The notes under the pieces were generated by a model. That model saw nothing but the letters and a program-made list of their open reading frames with translations, had not been told where the DNA came from and did not search any database. A program made the translations under genes and the position numbers. A stretch of 39,669 bases of DNA, from assembly GCA_964498515.1 (NCBI GenBank), contig CAZCGV010000001.1:1-39669 (forward strand), in the 5' to 3' direction. This DNA is from an uncultured Methanosarcinales archaeon. Lineage in GTDB: Archaea > Nanobdellota > Nanobdellia > Woesearchaeales > SKGA01. This document shows, piece by piece, positions 10,493-11,350 of the stretch (positions are counted from its first letter, which is position 1; every line of letters begins with the position of its first letter).

Positions 10493-11350
10493 TCATTTTT
10501 GAAGTATGTAAAATACTTCGTTTTCAATGTCAAAAATTTCTTTTTTAGTGAAATTTTGATCTGAAAATTTATCAAACCAAGAACGTTTATTTATTTGGAT
10601 GTCTTTTTTACCACCAATTGTTTTTTTAGGGAATGAGATTACAAAAAATTTTGTATTTATTTTTGAAATTAATTTTTTAGAACTGTGTCTTGATTTAGAT
10701 TCCAATGAGTCCAGCGCTTTAAATAAAAAACAAACGTCGTGTTGTTGTTTTAATATTTCTGAATCTTGTTGAGTTATTAAATTTAAGGCCATTGTTTTTC
10801 CTTTTATCTTTGTTTTTTTAAAAAATGATTCGATGATAACCATATCTTCTGTAGAAAGGTCTGAAGCAATATAGGTTGTGGGTTTTAACGGTAAATATTT
10901 GTATGCGAATGGATTAAAACCGCACGCTAAATCTATTAAAGAATATTTTTTATTTAATCCCCATTCAATTAATTTTTCAAAAATTAAAGAATATATTTTT
11001 GTGTAATAATTTAATCTTTCCATAGAGGATTGATGTGAAAGTAATATTTTTTCAATTAAAGGATCTTCATATGTTTTTAATTGATTTATTTTTGTTTCGA
11101 ATGTGTTTAAATTTGTTTTTATGAAGATTCCATATATTTCTCTTAAATCTGCACGGATTTTAGAAATTATTTCTTTACATAATGTGCTTTTTTGGAATTG
11201 TTTGAAAGAAGTATATTTTTCTATAATTGAATCTAAATCTTTTTTATTTTTTAATATGCATGAATTTATTAGTGAATCATCTAACGGCTTTAATTCTTTT
11301 TTATTTTTTATTAATTGAGTTAATTCGGTTATTATTGATTCAAATTCCAT
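10493..11350 (-). CDS. FmrO/ArmA/Rmt-family 16S rRNA (guanine1405-N7) methyltransferase-like protein
   Basis: Colinear motif matches to ArmA/RmtB as I remember them. LSHQSSMERL (cf. LHASTKERL), SLIDLACGFNPFAY (cf. LDIACGLNPLALY, SAM motif I), DVCFLFKALDSLE (cf. DLALIFKLLPLLE), FFVISFPKKTIGGKK (cf. AVSFPTRSLGGRGKG), WFDKF, EVFYILQK. The start overlaps the pelota 3' end by 19 nt. Confidence 0.7.
   Translation of the reverse strand: MEFESIITELTQLIKNKKELKPLDDSLINSCILKNKKDLDSIIEKYTSFKQFQKSTLCKEIISKIRADLREIYGIFIKTNLNTFETKINQLKTYEDPLIEKILLSHQSSMERLNYYTKIYSLIFEKLIEWGLNKKYSLIDLACGFNPFAYKYLPLKPTTYIASDLSTEDMVIIESFFKKTKIKGKTMALNLITQQDSEILKQQHDVCFLFKALDSLESKSRHSSKKLISKINTKFFVISFPKKTIGGKKDIQINKRSWFDKFSDQNFTKKEIFDIENEVFYILQK

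Follow-up and report, generated by a model that had tools for sequence, protein, structure and literature searches.

The characterised members of the FmrO/Arm family are m7G1405 methyltransferases, and all of them are resistance determinants. Sgm of Micromonospora zionensis (PDB 3LCU/3LCV) is a self-protection gene of an antibiotic producer, while ArmA, RmtB, RmtC and RmtF are plasmid-borne enzymes acquired by Gram-negative bacteria. The m1A1408 methyltransferases NpmA and KamB also act on helix 44 (h44) of the mature 30S and confer aminoglycoside resistance, but they belong to a different family, have a different target base, and gave no sequence or top fold match to the protein described here. 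In archaea, NEQ545 of Nanoarchaeum equitans was the first Arm-family ortholog to be described (Husain et al. 2010, PMC2896518); its catalytic motifs are conserved, its N-terminal domain is diverged, and its function was left open. Among the signature genes of the Nanoarchaeota, it was later listed as the only one whose function is defined (Podar et al. 2013, PMC3655853). Our literature search returned no paper linking FmrO with archaea beyond these two, and no paper testing an archaeal family member or reporting m7G1405 in an archaeon. The archaeal copy pointed out in a first-pass annotation of the locus is not a surprise, given the 2010 description of NEQ545 (PMC2896518), its 2013 listing as a signature gene (PMC3655853) and the JGI label of 16S rRNA (guanine1405-N7)-methyltransferase carried by close homologs. 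The gene type is already described, and what we add is detail on its phylum-wide spread, its conserved link to pelota and its altered docking residues.

The gene comes from a tiny DPANN (Woesearchaeota/Nanoarchaeota) archaeon with a genome of 0.81 Mb in 68 contigs (88% complete), and we refer to the whole 39,669-nt stretch of its DNA that was analysed as the window. The open reading frame is intact on the minus strand and encodes 285 aa, with an ATG start and a TGA stop at 10493-10495. Homologs share this start position in the alignment, which supports the ATG. The features of the locus are as follows.

10493..11350, minus strand: gene for an FmrO/Arm-family SAM-dependent rRNA methyltransferase of a Nanoarchaeota-specific clade (ORF, PF07091, PDB matches, AlphaFold2 model, Foldseek)
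11057..11350, minus strand: helical N-terminal domain, aa 1-98, which is the 30S-docking domain in RmtC (alignments, AlphaFold2 helices, RmtC roles from PMC10288597)
10496..11056, minus strand: Rossmann-fold catalytic domain, aa 99-285 (PDB alignment, residue roles from PMC2896518 and PMC10288597)
10718..10720, minus strand: codon of K211, the equivalent of RmtC K204 and Sgm K199 that contact N7 of G1405 (codon checked)
11332..12387, minus strand: pelota, a ribosome rescue factor and the conserved upstream neighbour (TIGR00111 and eRF1_1/2/3 domains)
11332..11350, minus strand: 19-nt overlap of the pelota end with the methyltransferase start (coordinates of both ORFs)
9535..10350, minus strand: TrmB-family transcription regulator, the conserved downstream neighbour (PF01978)

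Profile, sequence and fold agree and confirm that the protein is a member of the FmrO/Arm family, of the ArmA/Rmt/Sgm type. The Pfam FmrO profile (PF07091) scored 66.9 bits against a cut-off of 27 (E 2.4e-18), and it is also carried by 54 of 54 close homologs. The NCBIfam model Rmt_gen (NF000466) matched residues 50-284 with 134.2 bits (E 4.7e-39), below its equivalog cut-off of 250, and the specific Rmt models (RmtA-H exceptions) gave 32-60 bits, below their cut-offs of 500-550. When the protein was searched against PDB sequences, the only real matches were m7G1405 methyltransferases, namely Sgm (2.5e-16), ArmA (1.9e-14), RmtB, RmtF and RmtC. An AlphaFold2 model built from 27 homologs had a pLDDT of 92.6 and a pTM of 0.89, and in a Foldseek search of this model against the PDB the best 16 matches were all m7G1405 methyltransferases (Sgm E 1.7e-17, TM 0.72/0.78), with SgvM the next fold at 4e-7; no unrelated Rossmann family scored better. 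The full-length fold resembles Sgm, RmtB, RmtC and RmtF (TM 0.56-0.79), with a helical N-terminal domain followed by a Rossmann-fold C-terminal domain. The first-pass annotation had thus named the right family, and the six motifs that it quoted (HQSSMERL, LIDLACGFNPFAY, DVCFLFKALDSLE, FFVISFPKKTIGGKK, WFDKF and EVFYILQK) are all in the translation.

Our preferred reading, to which we give a probability of roughly 60%, is that this is an intrinsic, chromosomally inherited Arm/FmrO enzyme that methylates N7 of G1405 in the organism's own 16S rRNA. With S-adenosylmethionine (SAM) bound, the enzyme would dock on the cell's own assembled small subunit, flip G1405 out of helix 44 (E. coli numbering) and methylate N7, and as a side effect the ribosome would become insensitive to 4,6-disubstituted deoxystreptamine aminoglycosides. 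That the 30S is the substrate, G1405 the position and N7 the atom methylated is inferred, as is any effect on drugs or on decoding.

Among the described enzymes Sgm is the best match in both sequence and fold, and the two share the two-domain architecture, although identity is only ~22%. We transferred residue roles from the published structure of Sgm (PMC2896518) and the cryo-EM structure of RmtC on the 30S (PMC10288597) through alignments, with the following correspondences.

SAM binding: Sgm R108 corresponds to R112 of the window protein
SAM binding: Sgm D131 and G135 correspond to D140 and G144
SAM binding: Sgm D156 and RmtC D160 correspond to D164
SAM binding: Sgm D182 corresponds to N190 (ArmA likewise has N; the clade has D or N)
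Guanine positioning: the aromatic RmtC Y60 and Sgm F64 correspond to F76
Guanine positioning: Sgm E107 corresponds to E111
Guanine positioning: RmtC K204 and Sgm K199 correspond to K211
h44-distorting loop: RmtC K236, R241 and M245 correspond to K243, K248 and I251, in a loop one residue shorter

Sgm residues F64, T105, E107, R108, D131, G135, D156, K199 and P229 are all matched in the window protein, and D182, replaced by N190, is a difference. The catalytic domain contains H106, S108, E111, R112, D140..G144 of motif I, D164 of motif II, N190 of motif III, K211 and P241, as well as the h44-distorting loop K243..K248..I251..N254. The SAM- or G1405-binding residues retained are F76, S108, E111, R112, D140, G144, D164, K211, P241, K243, K248 and I251, so that the cofactor and catalytic residues are intact. 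ArmA, RmtB, RmtC and RmtF share with the window protein the family, the fold, the catalytic lysine, the aromatic residue, the glutamate and a similar h44-binding loop, at 18-30% identity. In an alignment of 112 archaeal and 37 bacterial sequences, the catalytic lysine at the K211 position is K in 112/112 archaeal and 34/37 bacterial sequences, and E111 is invariant in all 112 archaeal homologs. The h44 loop of the archaeal clade has K/R in 95/112 and I/M/L in 108/112, and R66 and F76 of the N-terminal domain are conserved.

There are also differences from the bacterial enzymes. In RmtC, Y21 and H54 are N1 docking residues needed for activity in E. coli (PMC10288597). Where bacterial sequences have K20/Y21 the window protein has E19/L20, with Y at the second position in 33/37 bacterial but 4/112 archaeal sequences, and the H54 position is R70 (H in 36/37 bacterial sequences, R in 79 and H in 18 of the 112 of the archaeal clade). 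In 110/112 archaeal sequences, K-x-L-D replaces the K-x-L-P motif that follows the catalytic lysine in bacteria, and the motif VI proline is variable in the archaeal clade. The N-terminal domain is also longer than that of ArmA, as the first-pass annotation had suspected: residue 99 aligns with RmtB residue 75, and the extra length is a ~20-residue insertion (about 38-57) that AlphaFold2 models as two short helices. The insertion sets the window protein apart from NEQ545, which was reported without one N-terminal helix (PMC2896518); in other respects the two are alike, as chromosomal Arm/FmrO homologs of Nanoarchaeota with conserved catalytic motifs and a diverged helical N-terminal domain. 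We infer from the phylum-wide clade that they are orthologs.

Given the replaced docking residues and the K-x-L-D motif, the docking surface or the exact target could differ, and the archaeal clade might have moved to a different 16S rRNA nucleotide or another RNA altogether while remaining an Arm-fold SAM-dependent methyltransferase. The loss of Y21 and H54, the clade-specific P-to-D change beside the catalytic lysine, the variable motif VI proline, the N-terminal insertion of ~20 aa, the Rmt_gen score under the equivalog cut-off (134 vs 250 bits) and the fact that Husain et al. did not commit to a function for NEQ545 (PMC2896518) all speak for such a shift. We nevertheless regard it as quite unlikely. 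F76, E111 and K211, which hold SAM and the flipped guanine, are retained, as is the h44-opening loop (K243, K248 and I251), and 20 16S genes sampled from the phylum show no variation at G1405 and its neighbours. Furthermore, basal Nanoarchaeia lineages still carry the canonical bacterial K-Y and H docking residues; therefore the ancestral archaeal enzyme looked canonical, and the subclade of the window altered its docking residues later.

For the preferred reading, methylation of G1405, the organism must have a suitable target nucleotide, and it does. Helix 44 in the 16S rRNA of the same genome is GCCCGUCAAACC on one strand and UUAAGUCGUCACAAGG on the other, and the RNA reads GCCCGUCA...AAGUCGU, which corresponds to G1405-C1496, U1406.U1495, C1407-G1494 and A1408. 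In the gene itself (L077), positions 2833-2840 are GCCCGTCA, with AAGTCGT on the 3' strand, and the G1405-C1496 target context is present. Each of 20 other 16S genes from the phylum likewise has G at 1405 and A at 1408, and 4 of these genes belong to genomes without the methyltransferase. Since G1405 is present in all of the sampled 16S genes, even where the methyltransferase is missing, the substrate is always available. When the M245 and H54 equivalents were set against 16S positions 1404-1409 in these 20 genomes, position 1409 varied without pattern, and with G1405 and A1408 invariant the comparison added no information. The m7G modification is silent in ordinary RNA-seq.

In the pocket for aminoglycoside ring I, the floor is the 1409-1491 pair. 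We noted that this pair is A-U in the organism's own 16S (L077 2841 and about 2911) and C-G in bacteria, and that 1409 can be A, C, G or U among 20 Nanoarchaeota genes, so baseline drug sensitivity may differ between lineages.

The archaeal host of the gene and the 19-nt overlap of its start with pelota, both reported in the first-pass annotation, were confirmed. The upstream ORF is identified as pelota by TIGR00111 (186 bits vs a cut-off of 178) and by its eRF1_1/2/3 domains. Because the other intergenic gaps are 37-169 nt, pelota and the methyltransferase are the only overlapping pair on the strand, and by their coordinates the nearest relatives L018, L019 and L020 have the same 19-nt overlap. 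The overlap suggests that the methyltransferase is probably co-transcribed and translationally coupled with pelota. As a possible Shine-Dalgarno signal for this coupling we considered a GGAGG 19-23 nt before the ATG, and rejected it as too distant and as lying inside conserved codons of the pelota C-terminus. An Rfam scan of the window gave no match.

The order pelota, FmrO, TrmB is kept in about 24 of 70 loci, down to ~35% methyltransferase identity; pelota is the immediate same-strand neighbour upstream in 22 loci, and TrmB lies downstream in 24. A wider block, RadA-pelota-FmrO-TrmB-TRAM-S2, is found in the 8 nearest loci, and identity drops in step across these genes. In other lineages the FmrO gene follows aIF1A and a Pno1/Krr1-like KH protein, or lies near aIF2 beta, aIF2 gamma and a MiaB-like enzyme. 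Both aIF1A and Pno1/Dim2-type KH proteins are known to bind the small subunit in the h44/h45 region. These neighbours are circumstantial support for a role at the small subunit. Translation genes are abundant in these genomes anyway. In two relatives that lack the methyltransferase, TrmB comes directly after pelota, 177 and 270 nt away, and therefore the gene can be cleanly lost or gained at this site and is not essential.

Compared with the nearest relative (L018), the genes of the block differ in how strongly they are constrained.

Methyltransferase: 73% identity, dN/dS 0.165
Pelota: 86% identity, dN/dS 0.109
TrmB: 96% identity, dN/dS 0.042
RadA: 95% identity, dN/dS 0.026
S2: 94% identity, dN/dS 0.059

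The methyltransferase is under purifying selection, yet no other gene of the block evolves faster or is less constrained. Its G+C is likewise the lowest of the block (23.3%, vs 30.1% for the window), and both features might be expected of a gene that is decaying or already non-functional. That the gene is a pseudogene seems scarcely credible, however, when the frame is intact, dN/dS is 0.165, all of the cofactor and catalytic residues are retained and the predicted structure is confident (pLDDT 92.6). We ruled it out on the residue conservation and dN/dS.

At residue 163, one before the motif II aspartate, the 90% cluster representative P0001 has L where the window protein has S (YIALDLS vs YIASDLS). 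The substitution reflects either strain variation or the assembly.

A maximum-likelihood tree places the 54 sequences retrieved with the window protein on one side of a branch with 100% SH-aLRT support, and ArmA with 32 ArmA-like metagenomic proteins, RmtB, RmtC, RmtF and Sgm on the other. After 20 sequences from other orders of the class were added, 47 of the 50 archaeal sequences formed one clade with 99% support, apart from the bacterial sequences, and the window protein lies deep inside it. The phylogeny that the first-pass annotation had proposed for telling horizontal transfer from an ancient archaeal clade thus comes out for the latter, and the gene belongs to a large, old, archaeon-specific branch of the ArmA/Sgm-type family. 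Recent transfer of a resistance gene from bacteria, for which one could cite the low G+C of the gene and the three other Nanoarchaeia sequences on the bacterial side of the tree, is highly improbable. Besides the position of the window protein in the tree, its identity declines in step with that of RadA, S2 and TrmB over the 8 syntenic loci, the ORF list and a Pfam scan of the window showed no mobile-element genes near the methyltransferase, and the best plasmid match, ArmA, is only 30% identical. The trees, the synteny and the graded identity rule out a recent bacterial origin; the gene is vertically inherited. In this it differs from ArmA, RmtB, RmtC and RmtF, which are plasmid-borne, whereas the window gene is chromosomal and syntenic, sits in a separate clade, lacks their Y21 and H54 and scores below the NCBIfam equivalog cut-off.

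The three Nanoarchaeia homologs on the bacterial side, from L082 (G201:C15), L084 (G436:C1) and L085 (G360:C41), are unresolved at its base and have the bacterial-type K-Y, H and P/T signature residues. Genome G201 has two FmrO copies, one of the archaeal type and one of the bacterial type. The bacterial-side archaeal homologs may reflect exchange between ultra-small archaea and bacteria, or deeper paralogy. Two further proteins, P0095 (482 aa) and P0125 (489 aa), consist of an archaeal-type FmrO fused to a second, generic class I methyltransferase domain (Methyltransf_11/25). A comparison of this second domain with the PDB found no specific relative and no clue to its function.

FmrO homologs occur in 229 of the 401 sampled genomes of the phylum (57%) and are absent from the remaining 43%. 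Every sampled member of the window's own genus and family has a homolog, and when the families of the order were sampled evenly, 45 of 151 genomes did. None was found in 14 control genomes, 4 of them archaea. Close homologs, where named, are from Woesearchaeota, Nanoarchaeota or Nanobdellota. A scan of genome contigs used a pattern specific to the archaeal clade and is uninformative on bacteria. Searching 1.84 billion representatives with the archaeal profile, we matched 1951 clusters, defined at 50% identity, at E <= 1e-3, and 780 at E <= 1e-30. The family, which the first-pass annotation described as known mainly from actinomycetes and plasmids, is not confined to these, as the ~1950 such clusters show. 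The annotation's preference for a chromosomal, intrinsic role over an acquired one fits the phylogeny, the synteny and the distribution.

The same distribution can be viewed from another side. The enzyme could carry out the same m7G1405 chemistry and yet be kept for defence against aminoglycosides made by neighbouring microbes, rather than for a benefit to translation. This would agree with the resistance function of all characterised family members and with a gene that is dispensable and patchy (45/151 genomes, and precisely absent between pelota and TrmB in two relatives) and that evolves faster than its neighbours. Moreover, the organism's own 16S keeps A1408, a drug-binding position for aminoglycosides. 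We nonetheless consider defence as the selected function rather unlikely, because the gene is retained in more than half of the very small genomes across the phylum by vertical inheritance, it is set among translation genes and not mobile or defence genes, and no aminoglycoside biosynthesis context was seen around it, in contrast to the producer setting of Sgm. Sequence alone cannot separate the two explanations, and protection from aminoglycosides may be either the selected benefit or a by-product of the modification.

We observed several other genes in the window. A single 671-aa ORF at 29866-31881 on the minus strand matches both PF01896 and PF04104 and is a fused PriS-PriL primase; such a fusion is known from Nanoarchaeum equitans. 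At 4749-7250 on the plus strand there is an 833-aa DNA gyrase subunit A, with PF00521, six gyrase C-terminal repeats and a TTG start in the longest frame. SecY is at 16222-17631. From 18518 to 29623 on the minus strand there is a series of short same-strand ORFs that ends with ribosomal protein L3 (28640-29623). This looks like the usual archaeal ribosomal protein cluster, which would account for the strong strand skew of the region.

The closest relatives of the plasmid-borne ArmA (30-41% identity; P0056-P0087) are chromosomal genes of uncultured bacteria. One of the close relatives is named Candidatus Moranbacteria, and another (L078 5001-5798) is on a 1.14-Mb contig, where it adjoins genes for methionyl-tRNA formyltransferase and signal peptidase I. 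Going by these sequences, ArmA-like genes seem to be common in ultra-small (CPR-like) bacteria.

A broader proposal, which is possible but which we hold to be doubtful, takes the preferred reading of an intrinsic G1405 methyltransferase beyond this one genome. N7-methylation of G1405 may be a standing housekeeping trait of the ribosome in most Nanoarchaeota, as well as in some ultra-small bacteria with chromosomal ArmA-like genes, with most of the diversity of the Arm family residing in these tiny symbionts, which would be its natural reservoir and possibly its evolutionary source; the subclade of the window would have re-tuned the docking at the Y21 and H54 positions to the archaeal small subunit.

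If G1405 is indeed methylated by the enzyme, this would be the first known case of m7G1405 in the ribosome of an archaeon, and an example in which the modification is an intrinsic trait rather than an acquired resistance. A supposedly rare resistance family is common in an archaeal phylum, with homologs in 57% of the sampled genomes and at least 780 clusters at E <= 1e-30. The chromosomal ArmA relatives in CPR-like bacteria bear on the unknown origin of armA, and the phylum-wide spread of the archaeal genes bears on the origins of the family's genes and on how FmrO hits are read in resistome surveys of environmental metagenomes.
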